Shown: positions 10,665 through 38,853 of the stretch, piece by piece | How positions within the stretch are numbered: position 1 is the first letter of the stretch | How the letters are laid out: every line of letters starts with the position of its first letter | Assembly: GCF_004010195.1 (NCBI RefSeq) | Contig: NC_057759.1 | Location: 2,492,295 to 2,536,914 of the forward strand | DNA: 44,620 nucleotides | Direction of reading: 5' to 3' | From: Chiloscyllium plagiosum | Lineage: Eukaryota | Notes under the pieces: generated by a model | Database searches by the model: none | Told to the model about the DNA's origin: nothing | The model's input: only the letters and a program-made list of their open reading frames with translations | Program-made: the position numbers and the translations under genes

Positions 10665-10796
10665 TCACAATTTCCGTGGAACGTTGGCATAAACATTTCT
10701 TTCTTGGTCTTGATCAACTTCCTCATCCCCTCCTGTATCTGTGTGTCTCAGGGTGGCGTATATGATGCAGGATTGTTGCTGCTCCGCTTGGTCAGC
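10665..10796 (-). CDS. FCRL-like receptor exon 14, last coding exon (ADQAEQQQSCIIYATLRHTDTGGDEEVDQDQERNVYANVPRKL*)
   Basis: gaccttttctcag|gct, phase 0; IIYATL canonical ITIM plus C-terminal NVYANV; TGA stop at 10667-10665. Confidence 0.88.
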   Translation of the reverse strand, partial: ADQAEQQQSCIIYATLRHTDTGGDEEVDQDQERNVYANVPRKL

Positions 10797-10834
10797 CTGA
10801 GAAAAGGTCAACACATAAATGCAGTAGATAGTAG

Positions 10835-11690
10835 AAGGACCAAAATTGGTGGTATTGTGCACAGAGAAAAAGGTTATCTAAGAGTACAATGAAAATTTGA
10901 TCAGCTGTGCCAGTGGGCGAAGGAATGGCAGATGAAGTTTAATTTAGATAGATCTGTGGCATTACATTTTAGTAAGGCAAAATATGGGTAGGACCTATGC
11001 AGTTAATAGTACAACTCTGAGGAGTGTTGCTGAGCAAAGAGCCCTAGGGGTTCCCGTACATTGTTCCTTGAATGTGGCATTGCAGCTCGACACAGTGGTG
11101 AAGACGCCGTTTGGTACGCTTGCTTTCATCAGTCAGAACATTGACAACAGGAGTTGGGCGCTTAATGATACAACCGTACAGGATGTTGGTGAGGCCACGT
11201 TTAGAATACTGTGTACAGTTCTAGTCAGCGCGCTGTAGAAAGGCTGTTGTTAAACTAGAAAACATTTTCAAAAATGTTACGAAAACTGGAGAGTTTCAGC
11301 TCGAAGGAGAAGCTGCATAAGCTGGGAGCTTATCTCCTTTGGAGCATTGGAGGCTGAGGGGTGAACTTACTGATTCTTAGATAAGATGAGAAGTTACAAT
11401 CTTTCCCCCAGGATAGGGGAGTCCAAAACAATTGGGCTTGTATTTAAGGTGAGAGGGGAAAGATTAGAAAGGGACCTGAGAGGAAAATATGAAATGAGCT
11501 GCAAGAGGAAGTATTAGAGGCAGGTACAATTACAACATTTTAAAGACATTTGGAAAGGTACATGGATAAGAAAGGATTAAAGAGGTATGGGACAAATTCA
11601 GACAAATGGGACTAGTTGAGTTTGGGAAACCTGGTCAGCGTGGTCGAGTTAGGCCGAAGGGCTTGTTTCCATGCTGCGTGACTCTATGAA
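10835..11690 (+). mobile_element. CR1 LINE RT/3' fragment
   Basis: TKIGGIV, LRSVAEQRALGV remnants; tail gtgactctatga. A further RT piece (KFADDT) lies at 10280-10600. Confidence 0.9.
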
Positions 11691-12509
11691 AATGGATGAG
11701 AATAACAAACTTTGCCTGTAAGGCAATTGGAGTGTACAGGAGGACCTCTGAATATTTGGTGTCACTACACCGATCATTTCTAATGGCAAGGCACGTCACT
11801 GGAACAAGACTAAACATGACTCCGGCAAATATTATTTCTCTGTACTCTGAACAGGACATAGACATCTCTGTCGGGATGGGAAGTGAATGCCAATTATGAA
11901 ATGTCCTTGAACTGATCGACTTGCTCAACCAGAAGGCAGTGAGGAGTTTTCAAAGAGTTAGGAGTCATGTACAGAGCAGACCGGATAAGGAGGGCAGATT
12001 TCAATCTCTTAAGGACAATCGCAGGGGCGAACAAGCCCCACGAGCCGAATCAGCCATTAAATAGCATTGTGACTGATCCCCCATTCCTCACTTTCATTTT
12101 CCTGCACTTAACCCGTAACACTAGGTTCCACGACTCTATCGACTCCAGCCTTAAACCTTCTCCATATCTCCACACACAGCTCTCTGTGGCAAGGAGTTCC
12201 AAAGACTCATAACCTTCTGAGAGAAGAAATTCCTCCACATCTTAGTCTTCAACTTTGAACAAGATAGTTCTTTGTTCCTGGCAACAGTCGTCATTAGAGT
12301 CTTCTGATCTGTTTTTGTTTAAAATCGAATTCCAAATTCAGCACCTGCCATATCAAGATTCAAATTCACATCTGTAGGGCATACCCTAAGGAGCTGAAAA
12401 CATAGGGTTTTGCTTCCCTATTATTTCAGAAATTGAAAGAAATCTCATCAAAATGCAATATTGAGATCAGGATAAATTGCATCACATCGCTCAATTAAAC
12501 ATTGATATT

Positions 12510-12985
12510 CTTAGAATCCCTACAGCGTGGAAAGTGGCCATTCAACCCATCTATTCTGCACCAAGATTCTGGAACGCATGCTGTCCAAACACTGATCTTA
12601 TCTCCATATTAATCATGGCCAATCCCCTTAAGTTGCACATCATGCAAACCTAGAGTAATGAAGAAGGCTTTTCGTACCATTAAGTCTACAGTGATCCACT
12701 GAGTAGCATCCGACCCAGACTCATCCCTATAATCATACATTTTTCTGGCTCGCCCTCTTAGCCTGCCTATCGCTCACGATATGGGCAACTTAGCATGGCC
12801 AATCCATTTAACCTGCACATCTTTGCACTTTGGGAGGAAACCGGAACATCCAAATGAAACCCACGCAGACACGGGGAGAATGCAAAAGCTACACATGGAA
12901 GGACAGTCACTCGAGGTTGGAAATGTACCTGTGTCCCTGATGCTGGGAGGCAGCAGTGCTAACCATTAAGCCACTGTGCTGCCCA
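12510..12985 (-). mobile_element. HE1-type V-SINE with a duplicated tail
   Basis: ggaggaaaccggaacatcc...acccacgcagacacggggagaatg is the reverse complement of the V-domain. Confidence 0.85.
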
Positions 12986-13156
12986 ATGTGTTTGCCATGG
13001 GCCAAATTAGGTTTGGTTAGCTCAGTTTGGTCTATAGTTGGTTGTTAATGTATCGTCACACTGACAATATGCAGTTCAATTGCTGCTCTGGTTGAGATTG
13101 CTGTCCCTTAGATATGGTGACCATCATCAGAATAAACATTTCTTGCTCTGTCTCTG

Positions 13157-13194
<38 letters not shown>

Positions 13195-13278
13195 TTCCCT
13201 CTCTCTAAAGAGATAATGGTGACTTTACATTAAAAATATAACTTTGCTGATTAAAAATTCAATGCAAAAAAAACTTAC

Positions 13279-13310
13279 GTGTTTCGTTCCTGGTGCACCA
13301 TCAGAGTGTG
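13279..13310 (-). CDS. FCRL-like receptor exon 13, cytoplasmic (AHSDGAPGTKH)
   Basis: ttttttaatttgcag|ca...cac|gtaagt; 32 nt, phase 1 to 0. Confidence 0.8.
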
Positions 13311-13369
13311 CTGCAAATTAAAAAAAAATGCATTTTACCGACTGTATATATCTCAATGAACTGTGAGAG

Positions 13370-14380
13370 AGAGAGCACAGGAAGATTTATCAGCATATTG
13401 TCTTGAGGGCTGGAGAGTTACAGTGATTGAGAGAGATTGGAAGAACTGTGGTCGTTGTCTTTACAGCAGAATGGATTGAAAGAGAGGGAAGTATAACACG
13501 ATGAGGGGCGCGGACAGCGTGGCAGGAATAAACATATGCCCCTGGATGGAGGGATCAATGATTGAGGGAGGGGCATAGATTGAAGTTAAAAGGCAGAGGT
13601 TTCGATGGGGTATAAGGAATGTCTTGTACACCCAAATGCCCGTGGGCCTCCGGAACTCACTGCCTGTAAGGTTGGGAGAGGAAGAAAATATGATCACATT
13701 GAAGGAGGATTTAGATGTGCATTCGTGACGCCAAGGCTTTGGCCAAGTGTTGGGAAATGGGATTTAAAAAATATTGAGGAGGATGTTTCGGACCATCACA
13801 AACTCGATGGACCGATGGACATTTTACTCCGACACTATGACTGAGGAAATTGTGATGTGTATTCTACATCCAAGATACGATTAAAATGTAACGTGTTTTA
13901 GGGTTTGTTTTCAAAAGAACGATTCAGCAGTTCAGGCCGATACTCTCTGGAGTTTCAAGGAAAAGACGAGTTCTCACTGAGGGATGTAAGATGATTGAGA
14001 AAGTGGGATTGACAAAGGAAATGGAGAAAAAATATTTCCTCATGTGGAACAATCTAGAACGTTTCAAGAGAAGCGTGTGAGACAGATTGAAAACAGAGAT
14101 GGGGAGGAATCGTATCCCTCCAAAGGAGAAGGGTGGGAATCTGTGGGAATTCATAACAACACCTCCCACCAACCTCCTGCCCCCGCCGCAAAAATGGACA
14201 CAGTGTGTGAGACATGTCGGGACACTGAATAAGTTAAAGGAGGGGGACAGACAGATTGTTATTCAGTGAGGGATTAAAGGAAATGGGCACAGGAAACTGG
14301 AGTTGAGGCTAAGATGATATCAGCCACTGCCGTATAGAATGGGGGAAGTAGCCTCCTGAGGGTTCCTATCCCGTATGTTG
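13370..14380 (+). mobile_element. Two decayed CR1 3' fragments
   Basis: GLESYSDxERLEEL-like and gtgggaatctgtgggaattc motifs. Confidence 0.75.
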
Positions 14381-14499
14381 TGTTGGTCGTCCAGCTGCCT
14401 GAACATGTTTTAATGTGGGTGGCTCATAGCACGTGCTCACAAGCTCTAAATTGAATGGGCTCACCTGTGCGAGGCATCACATACTTTACTCACTTAGTA

Positions 14500-15760
14500 A
14501 CCAAGACCATAAGATTTAACAGACATTCAACCATCAAGTCTACTTTGGCATTACATCATGGCTGTTATGTTTCTCAATCCCATTCTCCTGCCGTCTCTCT
14601 GGAACACGTCATACCCTCACTGACGAAGAACCTATCTATCTCTGTGTTAACAATATTTAATGGCAGCCCACTGTGGTAATGAGTTCCACAGATTCACCAC
14701 TTGCTGGCTCAAGAAATTCCTCCTCATCTCAGTTCTAAAGGATCGTTCCTTCACTCTGAAGTGGCACGGTGCCTCAGTGATTATGGTCCCTGGTTCAATT
14801 CGTGCCTCGGGCAAATGTCTGTGTGGAGTTTGCACAGTCTCCCCGTGTCTGCATGAGATTCCTCTGGCTGCTCCGGTTTCCTCCCACAGTCCAAAGATGT
14901 GCAGGTCAGGTGAATTGACCATGTTAAACTGCCCATAGTGTTAGTTGGATTAGTCAGGAGTAAATGTAGGGAAATGGGTCTGGGTTGCTCTTCGAAAGGT
15001 CGATGTGGACCGGTTTGGCCCGAAGGTCCTGTTTCCACACTGTAGGGAATCTAGACTCTCCTACTCGTGGAAACATCTTCTCCATGGCCACTCTCTCCGG
15101 ACCTCTCTATTCTGTAAGTTTCAAACAGATTCTCCCTCATCTTTCTGAACTCCATTGATCCAGACCCAGAGTCCTCAACGTTTCCTCATGTGACAAGTTC
15201 CTCAAACCGAGGATCTTTCTTGTAAATCCCTTCTGGACTCCCTCCAAGTTCGGCACATCTTTCCTTAGATAGGGGGCTCAAACCTGCACCCAATATTCCA
15301 AATACAGTCTCAGCAGTACATTCCTGGTCTTGCATTCTAACACTCTTTATTAATTCCAACTTTACGCTTGCCTTCCCAACTGCCAATCAAATCTACCTGT
15401 TAACATGGAGAAAATCCTGAACTCGGACTCTGAAGTACCGTTGTGCTTCCGATTTCCCAAACCTTTCGCCATTTAGAAAACAGTCTGTGTTTCTATTCTT
15501 CCTACGAAAGTGCATGACCTCCTATGTTCCCACATGCTAGTCTATCTGCCATTTCGTTTTCCACTCCCCAACCCTGTCCAAGTCCTTCTGCAGCCTTCTG
15601 CTTCCTTAACATTACCTGTCCTTCCATCTACAGTTGTATAAGACTCTGGTACGGCCGCACATGCTAGTCTATCTGCCATTTCGTTTTCCACTCCCCAACC
15701 CTGTCCAAGTCCTTCTGCAGCCTTCTGCTTCCTTAACATTACCTGTCCTTCCATCTACCT
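14500..15760 (-). mobile_element. CR1 LINE fragment interrupted by an HE1-type SINE
   Basis: RTEMRRNFLSQQVVNLWNSLPQ on the minus strand, continuing after 15055. Confidence 0.85.
14761..15053 (+). mobile_element. HE1-type V-SINE
   Basis: tRNA-like head gtggcacggtg..ggttcaattc, V-domain tgtgtggagtttgcac..ctccggtttcctcccacagtccaaagatgtgcagg, CR1-derived tail. Confidence 0.9.
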
Positions 15761-16272
15761 TTTTGGCACCTAAGAAACACTCGCGACAATGAGATGGCAA
15801 TGCTCCCCGTGAGAATGATGCGAGGCCAAGAGCAAATGGCTCCTTGCCCCAGAGACCAATGCCAGAAGGTGCCACTGTCAGACATTAAGCTGTTGTATTG
15901 GAGCAATAAACAGCTTGACACCCCAGGGCCGAAAGATTAGGCATCCCTCAAAACAAGATAAACAATATAGCAATTAGCCATCATTGTAACTTTCAAGCTC
16001 CAATTCATATTGCCCTGTTGTCAATTTAGTTGACGTGAAGGGAATATAACTATGATTTGGATGATTAAAAAATATTATCGGTTATTAATAAATTCAAGAT
16101 GTAAAAAGATTTGAAAACCCTGCGAAGATCTTCACTCCATTGCTATAGGCAAAAGAAACATCAGCGATGTTTAAAAGTGGCTGAGGTTTTGTGGGTTTGA
16201 GAGAGACCGGAGAAAATCTCCACTATCACTGCGCCAGAAATGTGATAAAAGTATTCTTATTGTATCCTTTAC

Positions 16273-16338
16273 CAGCGTTTCTTGGCTTTGAGATCGTCAC
16301 GACCGAGTACAGCAAACTGCCATCCATTTTGGAGTCAT
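16273..16338 (-). CDS. FCRL-like receptor exon 12, cytoplasmic ITIM (DDSKMDGSLLYSVVTISKPRNA)
   Basis: ttgtttctcgattattag|at...gctg|gtaaag; 66 nt, phase 1/1; LLYSVV fits the ITIM consensus (I/V/L/S)xYxx(L/V). Confidence 0.85.
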
Positions 16339-17419
16339 CTAATAATCGAGAAACAATAGCATAGTGAATCGAAGGTTTAGAGAACAGAATGTTAAAAGAA
16401 CAGCAAATGACTCCTTAATTTAAATAGGGAGTGATAATTAAGGTCAGACAGCCAATCAAGCAGAAACGTAAACTTAAGCTATTGGCTCCATATCTTGGCT
16501 AAATAACATTGAATGGATATTTTGCATCAACGTTCACTACAAATTTTGCATCCACTCTCCCAGAACAAGCGAAAAATGGGGAAAGTGGAGGCTCTGGTAA
16601 ATTTCACTATTTAAAAAAAAGTCACTCATGGCACGTGTTCATCACCCTCTGGGCCCAGCGTTTATCTCCCAATTCATCACTAGTTGCCGCCTTCAGAAGG
16701 TGGGGATGAACTGCTTTCTTGAACTGCTGCAGTCCATGTGCTGTATATAGACACACATTACCCTGAGGGAAGAAATTCCAAGATTTTGATCCAATGATAC
16801 TGAACGAATGGCGTTATATTTCCGAGTCAGGACACTGAGCGGCCCGAAGGGGAACTTGTAGAGGGTGGGTGTTCCCATGTATCTGCTGCACTTGTCCTTC
16901 TAGATGGAAGTTGTTGCGGGTTCGGAAAGTGTTGTCTGAGAATCTTTGGTGAATCTGTGCAGTACATCTTATAGATGGTACACAATGCTGCTACTGAGCT
17001 TGGTTGAGGAGGGAATAGATGCTTTTGGATGTTGTGTCAATAACCAGGCCTGCTTTGTCTCTTGGATGGTGTCAAGCTTCTCGAATGTTGTTGGAGCTGC
17101 CACCATACAGGCAAGTGGGGAGTATTCCCTCACACTCCTGGCCTGTAACTGAGGTATTTGGAATGGCTCAATCGGGACAGCTTCTGATCATATATATCGC
17201 GCTGAAGAATAAAGGAATGATATCACGAAGAATCAATATTGTTCTGTCTTCCTCCGATGGATCCCAGGGTCTATCCTACAAATTACAAGTTGAGCCATAC
17301 CTATCACACACAGTCTTCCTCAGATATGCGCCTTTGATTTTCCACCGTTTATTAATAATTCTCAGAGTACGCCCCCTTGCTCGAGAATCTCGAGGTTTGC
17401 AAGCAAAATGAATAGTTAC

Positions 17420-17476
17420 CATTGTGTGTGTGTGTGTTCTTTACTGAAGAGTACACGGCTGCAGCGCAGCTCGAAA
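17420..17476 (-). CDS. FCRL-like receptor exon 11, cytoplasmic (VSSCAAAVYSSVKNTHTHN)
   Basis: cttttcttttgactctttag|tt...aatg|gtaact; 57 nt, phase 1/1; YSSV motif. Confidence 0.78.
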
Positions 17477-17609
17477 CTAAAGAGTCAAAAGAAAAGATAG
17501 AAATTTGTCTTCAACAGCAAACAGTCTGTCCCCAGGTGGTAAATAATATCTGTCCCTGCTGAGTTTTTCAAACAATTTCTGTGTTTCATTTTATTCCTGA
17601 CATGCGTTG

Positions 17610-18110
17610 CCTGAAGAAAGCTAATGGAATGATGGTCTTTACATCTAGAGGACTGGAGTACAAGGATACAGAAGAGATGCTGCAGTTATACTAAACCCCA
17701 GTTAGACACCACTTTGAACAAACTGGGCACCACACCTGAGGATGGATAGATTGTCCTGTACAGTATAGGTTTACAAGAGTGATACCTGGATTTCAAGTTA
17801 TGAGTTGAGATTAGACAAATGAGGCCTGTTTTCTCTACTGTTTTGAGATTTAAGGGCTGATCTGAGGGACGATGTTGAAAGGAAAAGGCAGGGTGTGTAA
17901 CTAGAAACGATTTCCACTGTTTAGAGATTCTAGAACTAGTGAGGGCATAGTCTGCGAATTAGTGCCAGACCGTTCAGGAGAGATGTTAGGAAGCATTTTT
18001 ATCCACAAAGGGTTGGAGAGGATTAGACATCTCTTCCACAAACGGTAAGGAATGCTAGATCAATTGTTAGTTTTCAATCTGCAAGACAGAGGCTTTTTTT
18101 GTTGAGCTAA
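17610..18110 (+). mobile_element. CR1 LINE fragment
   Basis: KANGMMVFTSRGLEYKDTEEMLQLY remnant. Confidence 0.8.
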
Positions 18111-18129
18111 TGTATTGGATACATTCTTC

Positions 18130-19572
18130 TAAACATGTTCCCAAACTAAACGAGTCACACTTGGCAGATTTTGGCGCATTTCACTCCAAACGTTTCCATT
18201 TCATGTACTTCCTCAAATGTCCTTTAAACATTATAACTGTACCCACATTCATCACTTCCCCAGCAAGCTCATTCTACACACGAACCTCTCTCTGTGTAAA
18301 AAAGTAACTCCTCATGATTTTTTAAAAACTTTCTCCTCTGAATTGAAAATTAAACCCAATTTTGAAGTCCCTCACCATAGAGAAAAGACACCTGCCATTC
18401 ACTTTATCAATACCTTTCGTGATTTCATAAACGTCTATAAAGTGACCCTTCAAACTTCCAAACCCTTCCTATTCATATACCCATCCAAATGCCTCTTAAA
18501 TGTTGCGATTGAACCAGCCTCCACCAGATCCTCTGGCAGCTCATTCCATATACGTACTAGCCTCTGCGTGAAAAAGTTGTCCCTTAGGTCTCTTTTATAT
18601 CTTTCACCTCTCAACCTAAACCTATGCCCTCCAATCCTGGACTCCCCGACTCCAGGGAAAATACTTTGTTTATTTATCCTATCCATGCCCCTCATAATTT
18701 TGTAAACCTCTATAAGGTTACCACTCAGCCTCCGACGCTCCAGGGAAAACAGCCCCCGCCTGTTCAGCCTCTCCCTGTAGCTCAGATCCTCCAAACCTGG
18801 CAACATCCTTGTAAATCTTTTCTGAACCCTTTCAAGTTTCACAACATCTTTCCGATAGGAAGGAGACCAGAATTACACACAATATTCAAATAGTGGCCTA
18901 ATCAATGTCCTGCACAGCCGCAACATGACCTCCAAACTCCTGTACTCAACATTCTGACCAATAAAGGAAAACATATTAAACACCTTCTTCACTAACCTAT
19001 CTACCTGCGACTCCACTTTCAAGGAGCTATGAACCTGCACTCCAAGGTCTCTTTGTTCAGCAACATTCCCTAGGACCTTTCCATAAAGTGTATAATTCCT
19101 GTAAGATTTGCTTTCCAAAAATGCAGCACCTCACATTTATCTCAATAAACTCCATCTGCTACTTCTCAGCCCATTGGCCGATCTGGTCCAGATCCTGTGT
19201 AATCTGAGGTAACCCTCTTCGCTGTCCACTACACCTCCAATTTTGGTGTCATCTGCAAACTTACTAACTGTACCTCTTATGCTCGGATCCAAATCATTTA
19301 TGTACATGACAAAAAGTAGAGGTCCCAGCACCGATCCTTGTGACACTCCACTGGTCACAGGCCTCCAGTCTGAAAAACAACCCTGCACCACCACCGTCTG
19401 TCTTCTACCTTTGAGCCAGTTCTGTATCCAAATGGCGAGTTCTCCCTGTATTCCATGAGATCTAACCTTGCTAACCAGTATCCCATGGGAACCTTGCCGA
19501 ACGCCTTACTGAAGTCCATATAGATCACATCTACTGCTCTGCACTCATCAATCTTCTTTGTTACTTCTTCAG
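18130..19572 (-). mobile_element. Relatively young CR1 LINE ORF2 (RT and C-terminus) with frameshifts, plus an older 3' piece
   Basis: WRPVTSGVSQGSVLGPLLFVMYINDL..SKFADDTKIGG; LERVQKRFTRMLPGLEDLSYRERL..NFFTQRLVRIWNELP. Confidence 0.96.
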
Positions 19573-19591
19573 GTCACAGATTCACACTCAC

Positions 19592-19683
19592 CATTTAATT
19601 GACTTGACTCAATTTCCGCGTAATCGAAATTTCTTGCAGGTCTGTCCTCACTCTTGCTCTCAGCACGATTTCCCATCATCTCC
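19592..19683 (-). CDS. FCRL-like receptor exon 10, cytoplasmic (REMMGNRAESKSEDRPARNFDYAEIESSQLN)
   Basis: tttctttctgag|g (GAG acceptor), donor aatg|gtgagt; 92 nt, phase 2 to 1, matching both neighbours; YAEI tyrosine motif. Confidence 0.78.
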
Positions 19684-19849
19684 CTCAGAAAGAAATATTT
19701 CGGAATTATTACCCAACCAAGTTCCAACTCACTCGTGACATCAATTTACTGCTGTTCACGTACCAAACTCCCTGATAATGAGTTCACTGAGCCATGGTCC
19801 CAAGGAATGGCTTCTCGGAATTGTCCAGAATGTTGCTCAGAACTTCTAC

Positions 19850-21570: not shown

Positions 21571-21639
21571 TGAGAGAGTGTCCTCGATTTGAACTGTTGT
21601 GCTTTAAATTCAAAAGATTCAGATACAGAAGTTCGTTTC

Positions 21640-21846
21640 GAAAGTGTGGTGCAGCAAAAGTGCACCAGGTCAAGGAGCATCCGAATAGCAGGAGAACCAA
21701 CATTTCGGGCAGAAACATGAGGCTAATTCATGATGAAGGGCCTATGCACGAAATATCGATTTTCCTGCTCCTGCGATGCTGCCTGGTCTGCTGTGCTTTG
21801 CCAGCACCACACTCTCGACTCTGATCTCCAGCATCTGCAGTGCTCA
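21640..21846. mobile_element. Older, decayed palindromic copy of the same Penelope-derived repeat
   Basis: Inverted arms homologous to 30811-31040; ribozyme core mutated (catgatga...cgaaatatc). Confidence 0.7.
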
Positions 21847-21984
21847 TATTCTCCTACGAAAGTGCTTTTCACCCAATTTGTCTAACAAATGTAAAATGCT
21901 TGGGTTTGCACTCCAGAGTGATTTTAGTCCATTCAGAATGTGTTTGAATGCTGTTAGAAGTTGGAAACCACCTCACTGACCTAC

Positions 21985-22015
21985 CTTTGCTGCCGGGAAC
22001 TGCTGGAAGAATCAG
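21985..22015 (-). CDS. FCRL-like receptor exon 9, cytoplasmic (ADSSSSSRQQ)
   Basis: Long pyrimidine tract ttattttctccag|ct...caaag|gtaggt; 31 nt, phase 1 to 2. Confidence 0.8.
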
Positions 22016-22779: not shown

Positions 22780-22881
22780 CTTTTTTCCTGTTCCAGAGTT
22801 TAACGGGAAGCAATGTGAGGAGAGAAAGGATCAGAAACAGTGGGACAATGATTGCTGCCATCTCAGCGCTGTGTTGCTGTG
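22780..22881 (-). CDS. FCRL-like receptor exon 8, transmembrane segment
   Basis: ctctctgaatccag|ca...AAA G|gtgggt; 102 nt; AQQHSAEMAAIIVPLFLILSLLTLLPVKLWNRKK, a hydrophobic run followed by a basic stop-transfer signal. Confidence 0.88.
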
Positions 22882-24105: not shown

Positions 24106-24408
24106 CTGGCAGTCTGAGATCGATGGGATTACTGGTCACATTAAATATCATTCCACTGGGACCCCTGTTGATCGCGCTGCATCGGTATTGGCCTTGGTGC
24201 TGGGACTGGAAGGATTCAATGGCGAGCTCTCTCCAGTCTGAGCTAAAGTTGTAATTCACGCTGACATTGTTTAAGGCTTTCTGTTGGAAGTACCATTGAA
24301 AGTAAGGTCTTGTACCTCGGCTCAATACACACTCTAGAACGGGACTACTCCCAATCAGAATCTCCTTTTTATTGGTTCTGAGTTTGAGGAAAACCCCAGC
24401 AACATGAA
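24106..24408 (-). CDS. FCRL-like receptor exon 7, Ig domain D5 (membrane-proximal)
   Basis: ttttgttccag|tt...CCA G|gtaatc; 303 nt; VLECVLSRGTRPYFQWY..HQGQYRCSAIN. Confidence 0.93.
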
Positions 24409-25719: not shown

Positions 25720-26004
25720 CAATCACTGAAACGGCGAGTAATTTGCTGTAGCGGAGAGACTCTCCCTCCTGGTTAGAAACAGCACAGTGATAATTGCCCT
25801 CTTGACTTTTGCTGATGTTGGCGATTGTGTGTATGGTTCTGCTGTGGTTGGAATACTCCCAGTAAATCTCCTGACTATCCTTGTAGAAAATATATTGAAT
25901 TGGGGTCGAACCGCGGGTTACAGAGCAGTTTAACCAGGTGCTGTCTCCTTCCATTACTTCGTTTCCAGGCTTTGCACTCAGATCTGGGACAGACACAGGG
26001 ATGC
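25720..26004 (-). CDS. FCRL-like receptor exon 6, Ig domain D4 (resembles FCRL D4/D5-type)
   Basis: ttctatcacag|gc...ATT G|gtgagt; 285 nt; RIPVSVPDL..EGDSTWLNCSVTRGSTPIQYIFYKD..EGNYHCAVSN. Confidence 0.94.
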
Positions 26005-26099
26005 CTGTGATAGAACAAAACTGTTAGGCACTTTTCCAAGTCAGGAACTGTTGTCTTCAGTAACAAGCTGCATTTCTAACATACAGTTGGAGATTGTCA

Positions 26100-26926: not shown

Positions 26927-27205
26927 GTTTGATTGAAATGAGAACTATGTTGCTCTTTTTCCTCAAATTACTATCGCGAGTCGTGACCTCACATTGGTAG
27001 GACCCTGAATGGTGCACTGTTGCTTCCTCTTTTGCATAACTGCTCTTCTCTGAAGGGAAGTTAAGAGAATCCCTGTTTTTGTAAAATGTGTATAAAAGGG
27101 GGTGATTTTCGTGAAAGGGTTCAGTCAAACAGACGAGGTTAAAGCCTTCACCAATGAATACTTCCACGTCGGGGTCAGCTTGCAATGTTGGCTTAGAGCA
27201 AAGAT
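26927..27205 (-). CDS. FCRL-like receptor exon 5, Ig domain D3 (resembles FcgRI/FCRL D3-type)
   Basis: ttctgttgtag|at...AAA C|gtgagc; 279 nt; DLCSKPTLQADP..GEGFNLVC..LLYTFYKN..HSGSYQCEV..RKKSNIVLISIK. Confidence 0.94.
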
Positions 27206-27539
27206 CTACAACAGAACAAAATCAAAGAGATATAAATACAACAGGTGCTGGAGATCTGAGACAAAACGCAAAAATTGCTGGAGAAACTTAACAGGTGTAG
27301 TAGTATTCTTGGAGAGAGAAACGGAAGTAACATTTGGAGTTGTTTGTGCTGTTTTCAGAATAGCCATCCTGACAAAATATAAAAAATAGGGGACACTATC
27401 TGTTTCGACTCATCACATTTTGATGCCACCACAAAGTTCCTAGTGCACAATCGCAAGTCACAATGGGTTTATCCAACATGGACGTCTTTACCTGTGAATC
27501 ATTTAAAGCAAGACAGAACAACTAAAATGAAATACCTAC

Positions 27540-27800
27540 CTTTTATAATGATGCTTACATCGAGTGAGATCCATTTCCTGAAACCAAGTTTCTGTTCACA
27601 TCGATAAGTTGCTCCATCTGAAAATCTCGCCATTGCTATCGTGTACTCTGATTCATGCTCTCCTTCAATTAAGAAATTGTTTCGATACCAAAGGAAGGAG
27701 TAATCTCTGTCAGATCTCCAGGAATAACTGGAGCATTTCAGAACAGAAGTTTCACCAAGCAGCAGGGTCGTTGAATGGACTTGCACAGTCAATGTCATAT
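27540..27800 (-). CDS. FCRL-like receptor exon 4, Ig domain D2
   Basis: ttctttaagcttcag|at...AAA G|gtaggt; 261 nt, phase 1/1; LGETSVLKC...WYRN...DGATYRC. Confidence 0.93.
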
Positions 27801-28051
27801 CTGAAGCTTAAAGAAGAAAATATAACCTGTAAGATCTGAAAGACCTTAGTAGCCCATATTACAATATAAGGGTATGGAAGTCTTACTGCAACAATACAAA
27901 GGTGCTGGAGGGAACCACATCTGGAGCACTGCAGCGTCTTCAATCCACCAATTTAAGGAAAGATTGAATTTAATGGGAGGTAGTTCAGATAATGTTCACA
28001 GAGCTGATCCTTGGAATGGAGGGGCCATCTTATGAGCAAAGGCTACACAAG

Positions 28052-28360
28052 TTGGCATGGTGGCTCATTGGTTAGAAATGTTGCTTCACAGTTGCAGGGA
28101 CCCGGGCTCGATTTCAGCCTCAGGCGCCTGCCTGTGTGGAGTTTTCACATTCTCCCAGCGTCTGCATGGGCTTCCTCTGGGCGTTCCACTTTCTTCCCAC
28201 AATCCAGAGATGTGCAGGTTAGGTGAATTAGCCATGCTAAATTGCCCCAGTAGAGTTCAGGATTGTATGTTAGATGCATTGGTCAAGGGTATTAGATTGT
28301 TATTCGTCGAAGGGATGGTGTCGACTTGTTTGGCCGAAGGGACTGTTTCCACACTGCAGA
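28052..28360 (+). mobile_element. HE1-type V-SINE
   Basis: Same head, V-domain and CR1-tail layout as 14761-15053. Confidence 0.88.
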
Positions 28361-28379
28361 CATGCTATTTTTAAAAGTT

Positions 28380-30015: not shown

Positions 30016-30259
30016 TCACTCACTAAAGTAAATGAGAAGCTAAATTAACTTGCGAGTGAAAAGAGATGATTCATTCAATTCAATGCCATTTCCCTCACTA
30101 TATTGTAACTGGGAACAGTGAGCAATCCGTAGGAGACGGCGAAGCTGGTTTGACACTTCTTCCATAATCAGTTGGACCCTCAGCAGTCTTTAGGATGTGG
30201 CAGAGTGTACGATGCAGAGTGTTAAGGACAGAATGTGACACAGCACGGGATGGAAAAGA

Positions 30260-33215
30260 TATGCCCCAGTGCAGGATGACGTCCAGTGGAGGACGTGAGC
30301 CCAGTGTAAGGTGATGCAGAGTGTAGTGTGAGGCCCATTATAGAGTGAGGCCCAGTATCGGATTTGATCCAGTGTAGGTTGAGGCCCAGGTTCGGATAAG
30401 GCTCACTTTAGAATTTATTTTCCCAGTTTATAACGGCAACCAATGTAGGATGTTTCTCAGATTCGAATGGGGCCTGGTTTAGGATGAGACCGAGTTTATA
30501 ATAAGGCCCATGCAAAATGTTTACAAGTTTACATTATGCCTCAGTGTAAGGTGTGGCCTAGTTTCGGAAGTGCCACTGTGTAGGAAATAGCCCAGTGTGG
30601 GATGTTTCCCAGTTTAGTATTAGTCTCAGTTTAGGATAAACTACACTTTAGATGACGCCTAGTGTAGGATGAAGTTTAGTTTGAGATGTGGAAAGGTTTA
30701 GTACGAGGCCCAGTTTAGGATGTGACTCAGGGAACAATGCACCTAGTTTAGGATGAGACTCAGATTCCACTATAGTCCAGTTTAAGATCTGTTCTAATAT
30801 AGCAAGTGGTGAAAGTGAGGACTGCAGATGCTGGAGATCAGAGCTGAAAATGTGTTGCTGGAAAAGCGCAGCAGGTCAGGCAGCATCCAAGGAGCAGGAG
30901 AATCGACGTTTCAGGCACGAGCCCTTCTTCAGGAATCCTTCTTCATTCCTGAAGAAGGTCTCATGCCCGAAACGTCGATTCTCCTGCTCCTTGGATGCTG
31001 CCTGATCTGCTGCGCTTTTCCAGCAACACATTTTCAGCTCTATAGCAAGTGGTCCAGTATAGGATGTTTCCCAATGTAGAATCAAGTCCAGTTTAGGATG
31101 AGGCCTAATTTAGGACTTGGCCTAGCCGAAAGGTCGACTCTCCTGCTCCTCGGATGCTGCATGAATGGCTGTGCTTTTCCAGCACCACAGTTTTTGACTG
31201 TTTAGAATGAGGCGCATTTGAAGATAAGGTCTAATTTGGGATGTGGCCCAGTACAAAATATTTCCCAGTTGAGGACGTATTGCTGTTTAGACTGAGACAC
31301 AGTTGAGGATGTGGCCCAGTTCAGAATAAGACCCTTTTTAGGATTTTACTTAGTTTAGGATGTCACCCAGTTTAGGCTGAGACCCAGTTTTAGAATGTGG
31401 CAAACTTTATGCTGAATTCTAGTTTAGGATTGGGCCCAGTACAGGATATGACTCAATTTGGGATGATACCCAGTTTAGAATGAGGCCTCGTGTAAGGACT
31501 GGCCCAGCTTGGAAGGAGTTGGTGTTTAGGATAAGATTCAGTTAGGATGAGGCCCAGCTTACAATTGGGCGCAATTTATAATGGGGCACAGTTTATGATC
31601 TGAACAACAATTGGAATCGGCTCATCTTTAGGTGAGACCCAGTTTGGTACATAGCCCACTATGCTGAGGCCATGTTTGGGATTAGGCCCAATTTAGCATG
31701 AGGCTCAGAATGAGATGTGGCCCAGATTAAGGTGAGGCCTACATTGTAATGTGGCCCAATTCAGGGTGAGGCCCAGGTTAGGATTGTGCCTAGTCTAACA
31801 TATGGCTTATTTAAGGATGTCATCCAGTTTAGAATGAGGCCCCATGTATGATCTGGACCAGTTTTGAATGAGGCCCAGTTTAGAATAAGTTCCAGTTTAG
31901 GCTGAGGCCCAGTTTAAAATGGGGCACAATTGACAATGGGGCCCAGTTTATGATCTGAACTACAATAGAAAGAGGCTCATCTTAGGGTGAGACCCAGTTT
32001 GGCATGTGTCCTCTATAAGCTGAGGACCAGTTTGGGATGTGGCCCAGTTAAGAGTGAAGCCAACTTAGGATGTGGCCCTTTTAGTGTGAGGCTCAGAATG
32101 GGATGTAGCCCAGTTAAAGATGAGGCCCACTTGACAATGTGGTCCATTTTAGATTGAGGCCCAATTTGAGATGTGACGTAGTTTAGTATGAGACCCAGTT
32201 TAGGATGTGGTCCAATTTAGGGTGAGGCACAGTTTACAATGTGGCCCAATTTACTATGGGGCCCACTTTATGATCTGAACCACATTAGGGTGACGCTCAA
32301 CTTAGAGTTAGACCTAGTTTCGCATATAGCTGACATTAGGCTGAGGCCCAGTTAGGGATGTGGCCCAGTTTAGCATGAGGCCAATTTAGGTTATGGCCCA
32401 GTTGAAGGTAAGGCCCACATTGTAACGTGGCTCAGTTTAGGATGACGCCCGATTTGGGACGTGTCCCAGTTTATGTATCAGGCCCAGTTTGGGATGTGGC
32501 CCAATTTAGGGTGAGGCCAACGTTGTAATGTGGCCCACTTTAGGGTGAGGCCCTGTTTGGTATATGACCCAATTTGGGATTTGGCCCAGTTAGGGTGAGG
32601 TCAATTTAGGATGCAGCCTACTTTAGGGTTAGGCTTGGAATGGGATGTGGCCCAGTTTAAGGTGTGGCCCACTTTGGGATTTAACCCAGTTTAGGGTGAG
32701 GCCCAGTTTACAATGGGGCCCAATTTACGATGGGGTCCAGTTTATTACCTGAACAACTTTAGGGTAAGGCTAATATTAGGGTGAGACCCAGTTTGGTATG
32801 CAGCTGACTTTAGGATGAGGCCCAGTTTGGGATGTGGCCCAGTTTTGGGTGAAGCCAATTTAAGTTATGGCTCAGTTTAAGGTGAGGCTCAGAATGGAAT
32901 GCGGCCCAGGTTAAGGCGAGGCCCTCTTTGTAGTGTGGCCCAGTTTCGGCAGAGTCCGTGTTTGGAATGTGGCCCAGTTTAAAGTGAGGCCCAATTTAGG
33001 ATGATGCCCAGCTTTGAATTTGGCCTAGTTTAGAGTGAGGCCCAGTTTGGAATTTGGCCCAGTTTATGGTAATACCCCTTTTAGAATATGGCCCATTTTG
33101 GAGTAAGACCTAGTTTGGGATGTGGCCAATTTGGGTGAGCTCCAGTTTGAAATGTGGCACAGTTTAGCATCAGGTCTAGTTTGGAATGTGGTGCAGTTTA
33201 GGATGAAGCCCTGTC
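30260..33215 (+). repeat. ~17-bp tandem satellite (GGCCCAGTTTAGGATGT / GGCCCAGTTTAGGGTGA), on the order of 150-170 units
   Basis: Continuous periodicity, most regular at 31650-33150; located in the intron between Ig D1 and D2. Confidence 0.95.
30811..31040. mobile_element. Palindromic Penelope-like (pLTR-derived) insertion with a 13-bp target-site duplication
   Basis: TATAGCAAGTGGT at 30798-30810 and 31041-31053; ~95-bp near-perfect inverted arms 30840-30936 / 30945-31041; CTGANGA..GAAACGTC core in each arm. Confidence 0.8.
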
Positions 33216-33549
33216 AAGTGAGAAAAGTGGGTAAATCTCTCTGGAGCAGCTGGGTCCTGACACCAGATCTCCTATCAGTCATGTATCCGACCGAATACTG
33301 GAGCAGGTTTAAGGGGCCAAATGGCCTACTCCTATTTTAATTTCTTCTGGTCCTGATGGTCAACATTAAAATCTGGGGAGTTCGAGAATTCCCTCCCTTG
33401 GGAAGTGGGATTGGTTGCCTCTGTGCATCGTTGTGTCCCTTGGGACTTGATGAATGGGACAGCATGCAGTATGATATATTGTGTGGTCTCTCCAAAAAGA
33501 TATGGTGTTCGACACAGAGTATGCACATCAAAGCTCAACGTTTCCGTAC

Positions 33550-33801
33550 CAATGGTCACCATTTTCAAAGGTTCAACTCGTGAAGAGGAGCTCCGATCAC
33601 TGTTCCTTCGACACTGGTAAGAGCCTCCAGTTTTACTGTCAGCTTTTCTTCGGAGGTGATAAGTATAATCCTCGTAAATGTTGTTCTTATACCAGAAAGC
33701 TGTTATAAATCTATTGTTGTACCGACACTTTAGAGTGAACCACTCCCCTTCTTTAATGACACCATCCCTGGGATGAGTTATGACGACCTCTGTGGATTGG
33801 C
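33550..33801 (-). CDS. FCRL-like receptor exon 3, Ig domain D1 (only its last codons appear in the ORF track)
   Basis: ttgttctgcag|gc...ATT G|gtacgg; 252 nt, phase 1/1, no stops. Translates QSTEVVITHPRDGVIKEGEWFTLKCRYNNRFITAFWYKNNIYEDYTYHLRRKADSKTGGSYQCRRNSDRSSSSRVEPLKMVTI, with the Ig motifs C...WYKN...GSYQC. Confidence 0.92.
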
Positions 33802-33964
33802 CTGCAGAACAACAATAACAGTCATTTCTAATGAGTAAAACATCAATCGAAACCTTTCACTCTTCATCACAGTTAATGCACTTGCTGTTTCTGCCCGATG
33901 CAAAACTACAATCGGTCGATTAATCAATGTTAATTGATTAATTAATCCAAATACTATCCTCCAT

Positions 33965-34465
33965 TATTAGGAACAAGTCAGGAATGTGATTCAATAATCT
34001 CCATTTGTTTGGATGGGTTCACTCAACACTCAAGAAGGTCGAAACCATCCGAGGACAAAGCAGCCCCTGCTTGTTAGGAACCACATTCCTGAACATCGAT
34101 TCCCACCAAAGTCGATGGTCTGTAGCAGCAGTTTGTACCATCTAGGAGATGCACTGCAGAAATTCACCACAGATCCACAGACAGCAACTTCCAAAGCCAC
34201 AACCAATTCCATTCAGAAGGATAACATGTGAACACCACCGCGTGCTAGTTCCCATCTGACGCACTCACAATCCTAACTTGGAAATACATCAGCCATTGTT
34301 TCGTGTTGCTGGGTCAAAATCCTGGAATTACCTTTTTTAGGGTATTGTGGGTCTGCCAATACATGTGTACTGCTCAGGTTAATGAAGCAGCTCACCACCT
34401 GCTTCTCATTTGGGCAACTAGGGACGGGGACAATAAATAATGTGCCCAGCCAGCGACGCCCAGGT
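33965..34465 (+). mobile_element. 3' end of a second LINE family (CR1/L2-group); minus-strand copies at ~16640-17150 and ~22295-22650
   Basis: caagtcaggaatgtgat..ctccatttgtttggatg (QVRSVMEYSPLAWM-like) and 3' UTR gcagctcaccacc..gggcaactagggacgggg. Confidence 0.75.
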
Positions 34466-34469
34466 CCCA

Positions 34470-35200
34470 TACGCAGAAATAATCTTCAATGGGACTCCAT
34501 CTACACAAGGACAGTGCAGGGGGTCATTCTTATTGATACGGTCATGGACAGATGGATCTGCAGCTGGCATGTTGGTATGGATGAAGTCGGGTTGTTTTTC
34601 CCACTTGGTTGGTTCCCACGCCACCTGCTGCAGACCCCATCTAGCAGCTATGCCCTTTAGGACCCAACCAGCTTGGACAGTAGTGCTGCTGCCGAGTCAC
34701 TGTTGATCCCCCCCTCAGGTTAGATTTTCTGCCCTTGTCATCTTCAGTGCATCCTCTAAAGGTTGTCTAACACGGAGGAATACCGATTCATCACCTGCGG
34801 GAGGATGGTACATGGTATTCAGCAGGAGGTTTCCATGACACCTCATATTGTCCAGAGTCAATGTTGAAGACCCGCAGGGTAACTCCCTCCGGACTGTATC
34901 CCCCTGTTCAGCTACCTCTGCTGGGTCTGTCCTGCTGTGGGACAAAGCGTATTCAGGGATGGTAATATCGGTGTTTGGGAAACTGTCTGTGAGGTATGAT
35001 TCAGTGTGTCCGAAGATGACTCTCCCAATTTTCGCACTAGCCTCCACATGTTAATGAGGAGGTCTCTGCAGGGTCGACAAGCTATTTCCTCCATTGTCTA
35101 TTCTGGTTTCTGGTTTGATGCTGGGTGATGGGTCTAGTTTCATTTCATTGTTGAGACTTTGCAACGATGGATAAAACTGAATGGTTTGCTTGGCCATTCC
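34470..35200 (-). mobile_element. LINE ORF2 APE-endonuclease fragment
   Basis: TESYLTDSFPNTDITIPEYALSH..GNLLLNTMYHPPAGDESV matches the non-LTR AP-endonuclease motifs (TE(S/T)xL, IxGY, YRPP). Confidence 0.8.
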
Positions 35201-35487
35201 AAAGGACAGGGATAAACCGCTTCTAGACTCGACATGTTAACGCTACTTCACTCTCCTTGTAGATGCTGCTAGTCCTGCCGAGTTTCTCCAGTATTTTCTG
35301 TGTTTATAATTTGTAATGTTAATTCTGTTTCTCTCTCACTCCATAGATGCTGCTAGACCTGCTGAGTTCCTCCAGTACTTTCTGTATTTATACCGTTAAG
35401 TCTGTCTCTCTTTCCCGTAGATGCTGCTGGACCTGCTGGGTTTCTGCAGCACTTGCCATGTTTGGAAGCTGTAACGTTAATTTTGTT

Positions 35488-35503
35488 TCTCTCTCTCTCT
35501 CGC

Positions 35504-35570
<67 letters not shown>

Positions 35571-35582
35571 CTCTCTCTCTCT
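35488..35582. repeat. Compound (CT)n(CA)n microsatellite
   Basis: Long perfect CA run at 35509-35566. Confidence 0.97.
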
Positions 35583-36269
35583 CGTAGCCCCCCACTCCCC
35601 ATCTCTTTCCCAACAGATCTGCTAGAATGTTGAAACATGGCATTTTTACTTTCCTGTCCTGATTAATTCGAGACAAGAAACTTCAAACAGAATCCGTTCA
35701 TTCCCCAGGAACAGTGCTGCCAAGTGTATATCAGCAAAGAGTCCCAACTTCCTAAAGTGACCAGGATCTATTAAATGAATTATTCTACCAGGGCAAAGGG
35801 TATCAATGTTAATGAGATCCACCTTCGCAGTATTGGTTGCTACAAAATACAGCTTTCTATCAACTTTGGATGTTTATAAAGGAACATGTGATTGGAACAT
35901 TGCTGTCTGTTACACATATGGCAAATTCACCACAGTCTTACAAGATCATTGGGCTCCTCTCTCAATACTGGGTGATGGTTTAACTTGAGGGTCACCACTC
36001 CTCAGGCGAGGGGAGAGGTTGAGAAGGAGAGTGCTTCACGGTTACCTCAGCTGCCATGGGAACTGACCTCATGTTGTTGGCATTTCAGTGTATTACAAAG
36101 CAGCGTTCCAAGGGAGTTCTCCGCCCCCAACCCTCCATTGGGGCGGTAATGGGAGGAGTTCTGGAGCAGGGTGTAATTACAATTTAAATAACTTTAATCC
36201 ACATCCAACCCCAAATTCACTGGAGACAAATAAATTGATTTATTCCAGAGATTTATTTTAAGAAGTGTG

Positions 36270-36730
36270 ATTGAGCAGTTTATGCCGATACTCTCTGGAG
36301 TTTAGAGGAATGAAAGGAGATCTAACTTAGGGATATAGGAAAGTAAAAGGGGGGTGGGGTTGACAAAGGAGATGGATAGAGGATGTTTCCTCATGTGGGA
36401 CTATATAGAACGAGACATTATCAATTCAGTAAAAGAGGAAGGCGCAGATTGAGTACAGAGATGGGAAGAAACGGATTCTGTCAAAGGGCGTGTGTGCATC
36501 TGTGGGACTATTGCAACCACCCCCGTCCCCACGGTCCCATGGAGAGGGGTTTTCGGGAAACTGGCTAAACTGAAGGAGGAAATAGACAGACGTTCAATCA
36601 CTGGCAGGTTAAAGGAAGCGAGGACAGAAAAAAGGCGTTGAGGTCCAGATGGCATCAGCTGCGATTGCATGGAATGGGAGAACAGGCTCCAAAGGGGCTG
36701 AACATAATCTCCTGCTTCTAGCCCTTATGT
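36270..36730 (+). mobile_element. CR1 3' fragment (same subfamily as 13930-14380)
   Basis: ccgatactctctggagtttagaggaatgaaaggagatct, near-identical to the copy at 13937. Confidence 0.75.
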
Positions 36731-36829
36731 ATTTATGACGTACAATGCACAACAGAGTAGAATTTGCACACTGCAGGAGTACCGAGGGACAATGCCAATA
36801 GTAAACACAATCAATCCCTAACACTGAGG

Positions 36830-37142
36830 ATCCGTACAGAGCAGAAACAAGCCATTCGGCCCATCAAGTCAACACCAACCCTCTGAAAAGACCCCCCTAC
36901 CCTATCCCTGTAACTCTGCATTTCCCACAGCTAATTCACCTAACCTACACATCCCTGGACATAATGATAATTTCCCATGGCCAACCCGCCTAGTCTGCAC
37001 ATTTTAGACTGTTGGAGGAAACCCAGTTAGACACAGGGAGAATGTGCCAATTGCACATAGACCACAATCCGAGGCTGGAATTGAACCCGGGTTCCTGGCA
37101 CTGTGAATCAGCAGTTTTAATCACTGAAGAACCGTGCCACAC
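36830..37142 (-). mobile_element. HE1-type V-SINE
   Basis: Reverse V-domain and ggaattgaacccgggttcctggcactgtga B-box region. Confidence 0.85.
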
Positions 37143-37570
37143 CCTGAGTCTGATCTGCTATTCAACAGCTGATCTGCAGCCTAACTCCACAAACCTACCG
37201 TTGGACCCTAGCCCGTTAATACCTGAGGAAACACAATCTCTCAGATTGAAAACTAACACCTGGTCCCAGCCTCCACTGTGGCTTGTGAGTGAGAGTTCAA
37301 ACATCTCCTGACCTTTGTGTGCAAATCGTGAAATGTAACATTATCAACATACCGTATGCCACCAGATACGAAATGTTTCTTACTGTTAAAAGAAAAGAGA
37401 GAGAATTTAGCGTCACGTCTACAAATGTTCGTATTTTCAATTGTAAACTCTGTGAGATGATGCACACGCCCATGCGATCAAGAGTCCTTTGCTTAAAGAG
37501 GAATCAGCTGTTGGCCACAGGATTTGAGCAGGATTTCTGTTTGTTAAAGGGGTAAACCGTTTCTTTTTAC

Positions 37571-37606
37571 CCTGAGTTTGTACGTTTGCGTGAGAAGCAC
37601 TGTAGG
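37571..37606 (-). CDS. FCRL-like receptor exon 2 (36-nt signal-peptide mini-exon S2: (S)YSASHANVQTQ(G))
   Basis: Acceptor tcattttctcacag|cc, donor cagg|gtaaaa. Phase 1/1, open, and joins exon 1 to Ig D1 in frame. Confidence 0.7.
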
Positions 37607-38813
37607 CTGTGAGAAAATGATGAGTTATATTTCAGGGACACGAAATATTGAATGGAAATGTCTATTAAATCTGCTCAGATCGATAACTCAGGGCATGCCA
37701 CAGTAGACTCATAGAGTCATTCAGCACGGATACAAGCCCTTCGACCCAACTCGACCATTGTCAACAGGTTTTCCACAATAAATTAAACCAGCCCCACTTG
37801 CCTTCAATTTAGCCCATATTCCTCTAAACCTTTCCAATCCATGTCCCTGTCCAAATATATTTTAAATGTTTTAATTGTACATATTTCTACCACTTCCTCT
37901 GGCATTTTGTTCCAAATACACTTCCTGTTTGAAAAAGATCCCCCTCAGGTCCCTTTTAAATCGTTCCCCTCTCACCCTAAAGCTATGCCCTCTAGTTTTG
38001 GATAAGGACAAGATAGAAGTCTGGGTAACAGTACGTAATATGGAATGCCCACTTTAATACAATAGTGTCTCACAGTACATGAAAAGCCCTTTGAACCAAA
38101 CAATCTGTACCCAAAAATACTAAAGAATGTTCCCATTCAACGGGTGAGGGTGAACTGAAACAGAGAGTCACAGTCTAAAGGAGACTGAGATGGGGAGAAA
38201 TGTCCTCACCCAGAGAGAGGGACCCCTGTGGGATTCCCTACCACAGAAAACAGTCAGGGGCAGAACACAGAAGTGCCCCCATCTCTCTATCTCCCTTGTC
38301 ATCATCCGTTTCTCTCCTTCAATACTGCCCCTCATTTCTCTCTCTCCCTCATTTATATCCCTATCTCTCTCACTCTCTCTCCCTCAATTCTACCATGATC
38401 TCTCTCTCTCCTTGAATTCGATGGAGTCAATGCTCCCTCACTCTCCCCTTTAATCCTGCCCCCACCTTGTCTCTTCCTCAAATCTACCCCATCTCTCTGT
38501 CGCTGTCTCGTTCACTTCTACATCATCCCTCACTCTCTCTCCCTCAAATTAACCCCATCTTTCTTTTTCTCCCTCAATCCTGCCCCATTTCTCTTTCTTT
38601 CCCTTTCCTTCAATCCTGCCCTTCCCATTCTTTCTGTCTATCTCATTCAACCCACCCTCCTCTCTGACAGGAATTATAACTACAAGCTCAAATACACAAA
38701 ATAATTTGAATAATTTTAGCTCCTCCAAACAGCATGGCTCTGACATCTCCCTAATCCTAGTGGCAAATTCACATGATGTTTCATTTATATATAAAGCTGT
38801 AACAACCACTTAC

Positions 38814-38853
38814 AAAACATGAGCAGGCAAAATTCCTTCACATACGTCATCAT
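38814..38853 (-). CDS. FCRL-like receptor exon 1 (signal peptide S1: MMTYVKEFCLLMF)
   Basis: ATG ATG ACG TAT GTG AAG GAA TTT TGC CTG CTC ATG TTT T|gtaagt: perfect phase-1 donor with a hydrophobic FCLLMF stretch. A homologous exon with the same phase lies at 6040-6073. Confidence 0.7.

Follow-up and report, generated by a model that had tools for sequence, protein, structure and literature searches.

The 44,620-nucleotide stretch of the bamboo shark Chiloscyllium plagiosum analysed here (the window; C50:2,492,295-2,536,914, C50 being an 8.08-Mb chromosome) carries on its minus strand a 14-exon gene for an immunoglobulin (Ig) domain receptor of probable FcR/FCRL type. The exons run from 38853 to 10665, measure 40, 30, 252, 267, 279, 285, 303, 102, 31, 92, 57, 66, 32 and 132 nt in order, and join, in coordinates fixed by script, into a single open frame of 1968 nt encoding 655 amino acids and a stop. 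All 13 introns are of GT-AG type, each of the five Ig exons is of phase 1/1, and six exons encode the cytoplasmic part. The joined translation is identical, letter for letter, to XP_043539740.1, a 655-residue RefSeq protein of C. plagiosum labelled 'PECAM-like X2'. This confirms the phase-chained model of 14 exons and five Ig domains proposed in the first-pass annotation, as well as its attribution to a cartilaginous fish. The RefSeq models and their orthologues show the gene to be genuine in the bamboo shark, where its existing annotation carries a misleading PECAM-like name.

The leader is divided between exon 1 (38814..38853, 40 nt, residues 1-14), which matches XP_043539740.1, and a mini-exon (exon 2, 37353..37382, 30 nt, residues 14-24), which is the RefSeq choice and is conserved in the proteins of three other carpet sharks (Hemiscyllium, Stegostoma and C. 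punctatum). An alternative second leader exon (37606-37571, 36 nt), combined with a D2 acceptor at 27800 (6 nt downstream), also gives 1968 nt and was ruled out by RefSeq and the orthologues; the length total alone is therefore insufficient to fix the model. Support for splicing comes from the RefSeq models and from conservation across species. RefSeq has five isoforms that vary in the exons they skip, namely D1 or the third cytoplasmic exon, and isoform X1 arises from a tandem acceptor 3 nt upstream of the first Ig exon; models of orthologues omit D5, or D5 together with the transmembrane exon. All 14 exons align with those of the Hemiscyllium orthologue at 62-98% identity, and conservation of the exons extends to four sharks besides this one. 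A crude splice-site score found just two of the four internal cytoplasmic exons in its range. Downstream of the stop, AATAAA signals lie at 9056 and 8891, and an Rfam search of the whole window returned no match.

All five Ig exons match Pfam Ig models (E 0.0025 to 7e-12), three of them above the curated cut-off, and no V-set hit was obtained for D1 at E<=0.1. Exon 3 (33550..33801) encodes a divergent first domain in the FcR D1 position. It is followed by a D2-type domain (exon 4, 27540..27806), a D3-type domain (exon 5, 26927..27205), a fourth domain that resembles D4/D5 and also scores near PECAM domain 4 in profiles (exon 6, 25720..26004), and a membrane-proximal domain of D6 type (exon 7, 24106..24408). 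Exon 8 (22780..22881) encodes an uncharged transmembrane segment at about residues 494-512, as evident from hydropathy, which peaks at residue 494, and from the structure model. The AlphaFold2 model (mean pLDDT 71.8, pTM 0.43) displays five beta-sandwich domains, one transmembrane helix (489-514) and a disordered tail.

The tail, about 140 residues long, begins with exon 9 (21985..22015, 31 nt), placed by the joined translation. Motif and alignment then identify Tyr551 in exon 10 (19592..19683; FDYAEI), which resembles an immunoreceptor tyrosine-based inhibitory motif (ITIM), a strict ITIM at Tyr590 in exon 12 (16273..16338; LLYSVV), and, in the coding part of exon 14 (10665..10796), a strict ITIM at Tyr625 (IIYATL), Tyr648 of YxN type (YANV) and the stop. 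Exon 11 (17420..17476) contributes Tyr569 (AVYSSV); it is absent from RefSeq X3, and its motif is not kept in Hemiscyllium. Exon 13 (13279..13310, 32 nt) was fixed by script and joined translation. The tail thus holds two strict ITIMs 35 residues apart and three further tyrosine motifs, so that the inhibitory character proposed at first pass is borne out at the sequence level. At least one strict ITIM occurs in 16 of 17 shark or ray proteins of the same subfamily examined. Furthermore, Tyr551, Tyr590, Tyr625 and Tyr648, along with all ten domain cysteines, are invariant in a nine-row alignment that includes FCRLs of kiwi, alligator and turtle.

The family placement of the ectodomain was assessed from a tree of 106 domains (17 named proteins, four teleost-like proteins and four exons from C47, with repeats thinned by hand) and from profile scores. 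D2 falls within a 19-row clade of FcR D2-type domains (support 96/90) and scores 73 against FCRL D2 as compared to 38 for the best PECAM profile. D3 lies in a 14-row clade (100/98) with the FCRL D3 of paddlefish, frog, kiwi, alligator, turtle and three mammals, scoring 135 with FCRL D3 and 82 with PECAM D3. D5 joins the final domain of FCRLs from paddlefish, frog, kiwi, alligator and turtle in a nine-row clade (99/91), with scores of 114 for FCRL D6 and 59 for the best PECAM profile, and by eye it shares motifs with two Xenopus D6 rows in the supplement of PMC2413239, a paper that terms D6 Xenopus-specific. No PECAM, CEACAM-like or CD22-like domain lies inside the D2, D3 or D5 clades. Conversely, no domain of the shark protein joins the CD22-like or CEACAM-like clades, whose labels we assigned from motifs. 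Per-domain phylogeny had been set at first pass as the check on an FcR/FCRL-type ectodomain, with CD22, CEACAM and PECAM1 as competitors; D2, D3 and D5 sustain that placement, and in these three domains the competitors find no support.

Sequence matches in the PDB point the same way. The shark protein matches, collinearly, human FCRL5 at 171 bits (residues 33-465 to 13-437, in one stretch), FCRL4 at 72 bits and FcgRI at 63-71 bits, and the 15 PDB matches that the whole protein yields at E<=1e-6 include no PECAM1, CD22 or LILR. The raw FCRL5 score is not diagnostic, since a PECAM-like protein encoded on chromosome C24 (P0195) reaches 220 bits against human FCRL5, besides 50 bits against D1-D2 of human PECAM1. 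Atlas neighbours of residues 24-290 include FCGR3, FcgRII and FCRL5 clusters. The gene has one phase-1 exon per Ig domain and keeps the subtype order D1-D2-D3-D4/5 of the FcR/FCRL family, and its signal peptide is encoded on two exons, a family feature according to PMC2413239. These observations suggest, with a probability of about 85%, that the gene encodes a type I membrane, ITIM-bearing inhibitory receptor of the vertebrate FcR/FCRL family with the order D1 (divergent)-D2-D3-D4/5-D6. It is D2, D3, D5 and the order of the domains that carry this assignment; the D4 motif has no part in it. All three motifs quoted at first pass (the D3 start, the D3/D4 junction and the B-C strand motif of D4) are present; the last, which had been called typical of FcgRI/FCRL, is also common to PECAM-like proteins.

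Several observations weigh against the FcR/FCRL placement. D1 lies outside the FcR D1 clade and, searched alone against the PDB, gave no FcR-specific match, while its profile scores are close (FCRL D1/D2 51, CD22-like 46, best PECAM 37). D4 scores higher with PECAM D4 (102) than with FCRL D5 (82) or FCRL D4 (81), a result favoured by the PECAM D4 profile, in which two of the three rows are chondrichthyan; a tree constrained to join shark D4 to FCRL D4 nevertheless passes the AU test (p-AU 0.415). The tree rests on 86 columns for 106 rows under a non-mixture model (LG+G4), leaves 38 of 103 branches open, and contains neither LILR/KIR nor tetrapod PECAM1 references, its bony-vertebrate PECAM1 being one partial coelacanth protein; it held no rows of the leukocyte receptor complex (LRC), and in the LRC comparison single domains hit LILRB1 and KIR3DL1 weakly. 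The leader exons of 40/30 nt differ from the 30/21 nt of mammalian FCRL1-6, so that, on a narrow definition of mammalian FCRL1-6/FcgRI by a 30/21-nt leader and D1-D5 domains only, the shark gene falls outside; the rule holds for just a fraction of the Xenopus XFLs too, as PMC2413239 reports. The best Foldseek hit by E-value is PirB, with a TM-score of 0.18, and multi-Ig chains were not discriminated by this search. Finally, a tail profile built from 12 shark and ray tails gave 9.0-15.8 bits for CD22-like and 10.6-19.9 bits for LITR-like tails (three each, on labels we take to be correct), which are not separated from the 7.4-28.4 bits of bony-vertebrate FCRL-type tails (nine of nine above the best of 20 shuffles); the tail signal is therefore partly generic.

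The D4 result bears on the reading implied by the RefSeq name, that the gene is a PECAM1 paralogue encoding an ITIM-bearing adhesion molecule. The fourth domain is indeed nearest to PECAM domain 4, and PECAM and FCRL have D3/D5-like domains in common. PECAM1 and the PECAM-like genes of C24 (such as that of P0195) also share a C2 Ig chain and an ITIM tail with the shark gene; they differ in their N-terminal domains and chromosome, and their tail pattern is unrelated. The separate C24 gene already has the PECAM N-terminal domains, whereas the PECAM-type D1-D2 and six-domain layout are absent from the protein studied here. Together with the FCRL grouping of D2, D3 and D5, the lack of PECAM1 among the PDB hits at E<=1e-6 and the 1.8-7.1 bits of the six PECAM tails tested on the tail profile, this leaves the PECAM1 reading largely refuted and very improbable. 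The RefSeq names of elasmobranch models, which mix FCRL-type and PECAM-type genes both ways, are no sure guide: the C24 PECAM-type gene is called 'FCRL5' in some species.

The shark-only clades formed by D1 and D4, neither with a supported partner, along with the PECAM-like D4, would also fit a shark-specific mosaic drawn from a shared FcR/PECAM/LRC domain pool, that is, a sister group or stem lineage and not true FCRL orthologues. Another shark subfamily, of P0161 type, has a more canonical D1; a Mustelus 'FCRL3' to which it is related has its D1 inside the FcR D1 clade. No conserved neighbours of human 1q21-23 were found. On the other hand, bird and crocodilian FCRLs agree with the shark protein along its whole length in three types of domain, in the order of these and in four tyrosines of the tail, which makes the mosaic distinctly improbable. 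The matching RefSeq models (kiwi XP_025934861.1, alligator XP_059575111.1, turtle XP_039369031.1) align with the shark protein over its length at 25-26% identity. All three share with it an uncharged transmembrane segment and four tail tyrosines; the kiwi and alligator proteins also have the D1-D2-D3-D4-D6 layout, to which turtle adds a D5. In comparison with these sauropsid proteins, the shark D1 lacks the 'PPW' start, D2 lacks the linker tryptophan, and D4 has no supported grouping with sauropsid D4.

Among other vertebrates, the inhibitory FCRL-type receptor proposed here resembles the Xenopus XFL family described by Guselnikov in 2008 (PMC2413239), which likewise has an expanded cluster, a two-exon leader, D1-D6 subtypes and multi-exon tyrosine tails. 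The XFL family is a paired one, in which activating genes bearing an NxxR transmembrane segment are about equally numerous, whereas none of 30 shark transmembrane copies examined (of 34) has a charged core residue, and no activating partner was found in the shark subfamily. Human FCRL4, FCRL5, FCRL3 and FcgRI have in common with the shark protein a collinear D1-D4/5 ectodomain, ITIM tails and, probably, a B-cell context. Three sampled mammalian FCRLs lack D6, and Ig binding is known for FCRL4 and FCRL5 only. Within elasmobranchs, family members are named in 11 species, ten sharks and one ray. Their RefSeq models, automatically named 'Fc receptor-like protein 2/3/4/5' or 'PECAM-like', include the shark gene, its orthologues and its paralogues, and the names of the orthologues extend over FCRL2-6, FcgRI-like and PECAM-like.

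The genomic setting suggests a large FCRL-type cluster of elasmobranchs, interspersed with fragments and histone genes, in which this gene is an intact member. A genome search placed on C50 46 of 75 matches to D4, 22 of 25 to D3, 16 of 17 to D1, 24 of 34 to the transmembrane exon and 27 of 34 to the last exon. The family matches on C50 spread over 0.15-7.1 Mb, and many contain stops; between 0.1 and 7.1 Mb almost all of C50 consists of FCRL-type genes of two subfamilies, mixed with dozens of defective copies and with histone H1 genes. This chromosome also holds two other annotated family members, 35 of 42 matches to the P0161-type subfamily and 19 of 37 histone H1 matches, interleaved among the FCRL-type genes. 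Human FCGR1A also lies among histone genes, at 1q21. Beyond the histone genes, the markers of human 1q21-23 gave no link that would favour the FcR/FCRL placement: RPS27 lies on C51 and VANGL on C12, NCSTN and NDUFS2 are unplaced, RGS-like genes occur only on C35 or unplaced, and a search for PRCC in the shark genome had no hit. A zeta/gamma-family search gave one hit, on C12, which presumably represents CD3-zeta; absence of FcR-gamma is not implied.

Decayed paralogues occur in both flanks of the gene, and the majority of the neighbouring copies are defective. That the gene is itself untranscribed or a pseudogene, intact by chance, is nevertheless scarcely credible: none of the 14 exons is interrupted or out of phase, RefSeq gives five isoforms that differ in exon skipping, the exons are conserved in other sharks, and this is the sole copy that matches all 83 D1 residues without a stop.

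The window contains other features. At 5697-6278 on the plus strand lies an inverted copy of the exon-1/upstream region (70% identity over 594 columns) with an open leader-like frame and a GT donor near 6075; no further family exons were found in the window. The intron after D1 contains a degenerate 17-bp tandem array of about 82 copies (31824-33211). Two intronic fragments on the minus strand (18453-19505 and 34718-35050) are what we take to be remnants of LINE retroelement frames, and an assembly gap of 270 N (6595-6864) lies outside the gene.

Elsewhere in the genome, four Ig exons with an uncharged transmembrane exon occur at C50:7,253,500-7,259,100 (L046:3527-9018, minus), about 150 kb past the last FCRL-type match. 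One of these domains has Atlas neighbours in IGSF1-like, KIR3DX1 and A1BG clusters (0.91-0.92), a PDB profile search was non-discriminating, and relatives exist at C50:7.47 Mb and on C38; it is possible that this gene is of LRC type and in linkage with the FCRL cluster. At C50:7.158 Mb (L044:7656-8588, minus) a 311-codon intronless frame may encode a G-protein-coupled receptor. On C24, two near-identical PECAM-like first-domain exons lie 62 kb apart (47.99-48.10 Mb; L017-L019), so the PECAM-like gene is duplicated, and the 7.4-Mb region of that chromosome also contains a defective copy belonging to the C50 family. At C26:11.07-11.09 Mb (L034:5422-5817 and L035:690-8803, minus), exons which we take to be pIgR/CD300-like V exons stand beside exons for a D5-like domain whose second Cys motif is altered, and the locus possibly encodes receptors mixing V and FCRL-type domains.

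As to the cell type, the receptor is most likely expressed on B lymphocytes, as far as the published transcriptome allows its gene to be matched. In the 2024 single-cell paper PMC11372145, fcgr1a-like, fcrl3 and fcrl5 are described as high in bamboo-shark B cells, and a supplementary table gives LOC122544513, 'PECAM-like isoform X5', as a B-cell marker (log2 fold change 4.45; 47.7% versus 3.2% of cells). This identifier falls among histone H1 identifiers, which suggests C50; the match to the present gene is weakened in that an X5 of the same name exists in three C50 genes, and LOC122544513 could be any of these three paralogues.

Of the ectodomain exons, that of D1 has diverged most in each of three comparisons with carpet-shark orthologues (77, 60 and 55% identity, against 92-98, 72-84 and 72-77% for D2-D5), which suggests that D1 faces the ligand; the ligand probably contacts D1-D3. 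Immunoglobulin or immune complexes are the foremost candidate ligand, though less likely than not. Another host surface protein, such as one of the major histocompatibility complex (MHC), is a doubtful prospect, as is a ligand of some other kind, and a microbial ligand is considered improbable.

ITIM receptors are known to be phosphorylated by Src-family kinases, to recruit SHP-1/2 and to inhibit co-engaged activating receptors. By the same route, clustering of the shark ectodomain would lead a Src-family kinase to phosphorylate Tyr590 and Tyr625, at which the tandem SH2 domains of SHP-1 or SHP-2 would dock, dampening antigen-receptor or phagocytic signalling. Tyr648 may bind a Grb2-type adaptor.

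A more specific form of the FcR/FCRL reading would make the protein a shark Ig Fc receptor (for IgM, IgW or IgNAR), acting as an antibody-feedback brake like FCRL4/FCRL5 or FcgRIIB. The domain order is that of FcgRI, FCRL4 and FCRL5, and expression in B cells is possible. The D1-D2 linker tryptophan that serves classical FcgRs is absent, though human FCRL4 and FCRL5 also lack it; the fast change of D1 and the many dead copies look more like pathogen-driven receptor turnover. FCRL4 and FCRL5 bind IgA and IgG, but for most FCRLs no Ig ligand was known, and FCRL6 is a receptor for MHC class II, according to PMC4016189. The reference list of PMC6795676 includes 'Fc receptor for shark IgM', published in 1988. 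On balance, this specific function is possible but unlikely.

A literature search found no paper describing the gene or the C50 cluster, although a description may exist in subscription journals or supplements. For the elephant shark, Wang, Belosevic and Stafford reportedly described two fcrl genes together with an LRC-like gene (Immunogenetics, 2021). The gene itself is no fresh discovery: RefSeq already lists it, with orthologues named 'Fc receptor-like'. It belongs to a known family, is annotated under a wrong name and has apparently gone unstudied; it does not represent a novel type of system. The main text of the genome paper PMC7677710 contains neither 'Fc receptor' nor 'FCRL'. A 2014 survey (PMC4016189) reported no FCRL in shark genomes, and a 2026 review (PMC13337447) still states that FCRLs are lacking in cartilaginous fish; both raise the question of how sharks use antibody on cells.

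The shark gene and its cluster would correct the statement that sharks lack FCRLs, a surprise tempered by the 'Fc receptor-like' labels of RefSeq orthologues, by the mention of fcrl3 and fcrl5 in PMC11372145 and by the fcrl genes reportedly described in elephant shark. A far-reaching combination of claims, considered improbable when taken jointly, would hold that D1-D2-D3-D4-D6 with a four-tyrosine tail is the ancestral jawed-vertebrate FCRL, retained in lineages from sharks through to birds, that this gene or a cluster-mate is the shark Ig Fc receptor, and that C50, with an LRC-type gene beside the cluster, preserves an ancestral joint FcR/LRC complex. The 'Xenopus-specific' D6, absent from the three mammalian FCRLs sampled, is argued to be ancient. 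The gene and its cluster further argue that the FCRL family is as old as antibodies, and they provide concrete candidates for a shark Fc receptor, testable with IgM, IgW and IgNAR.

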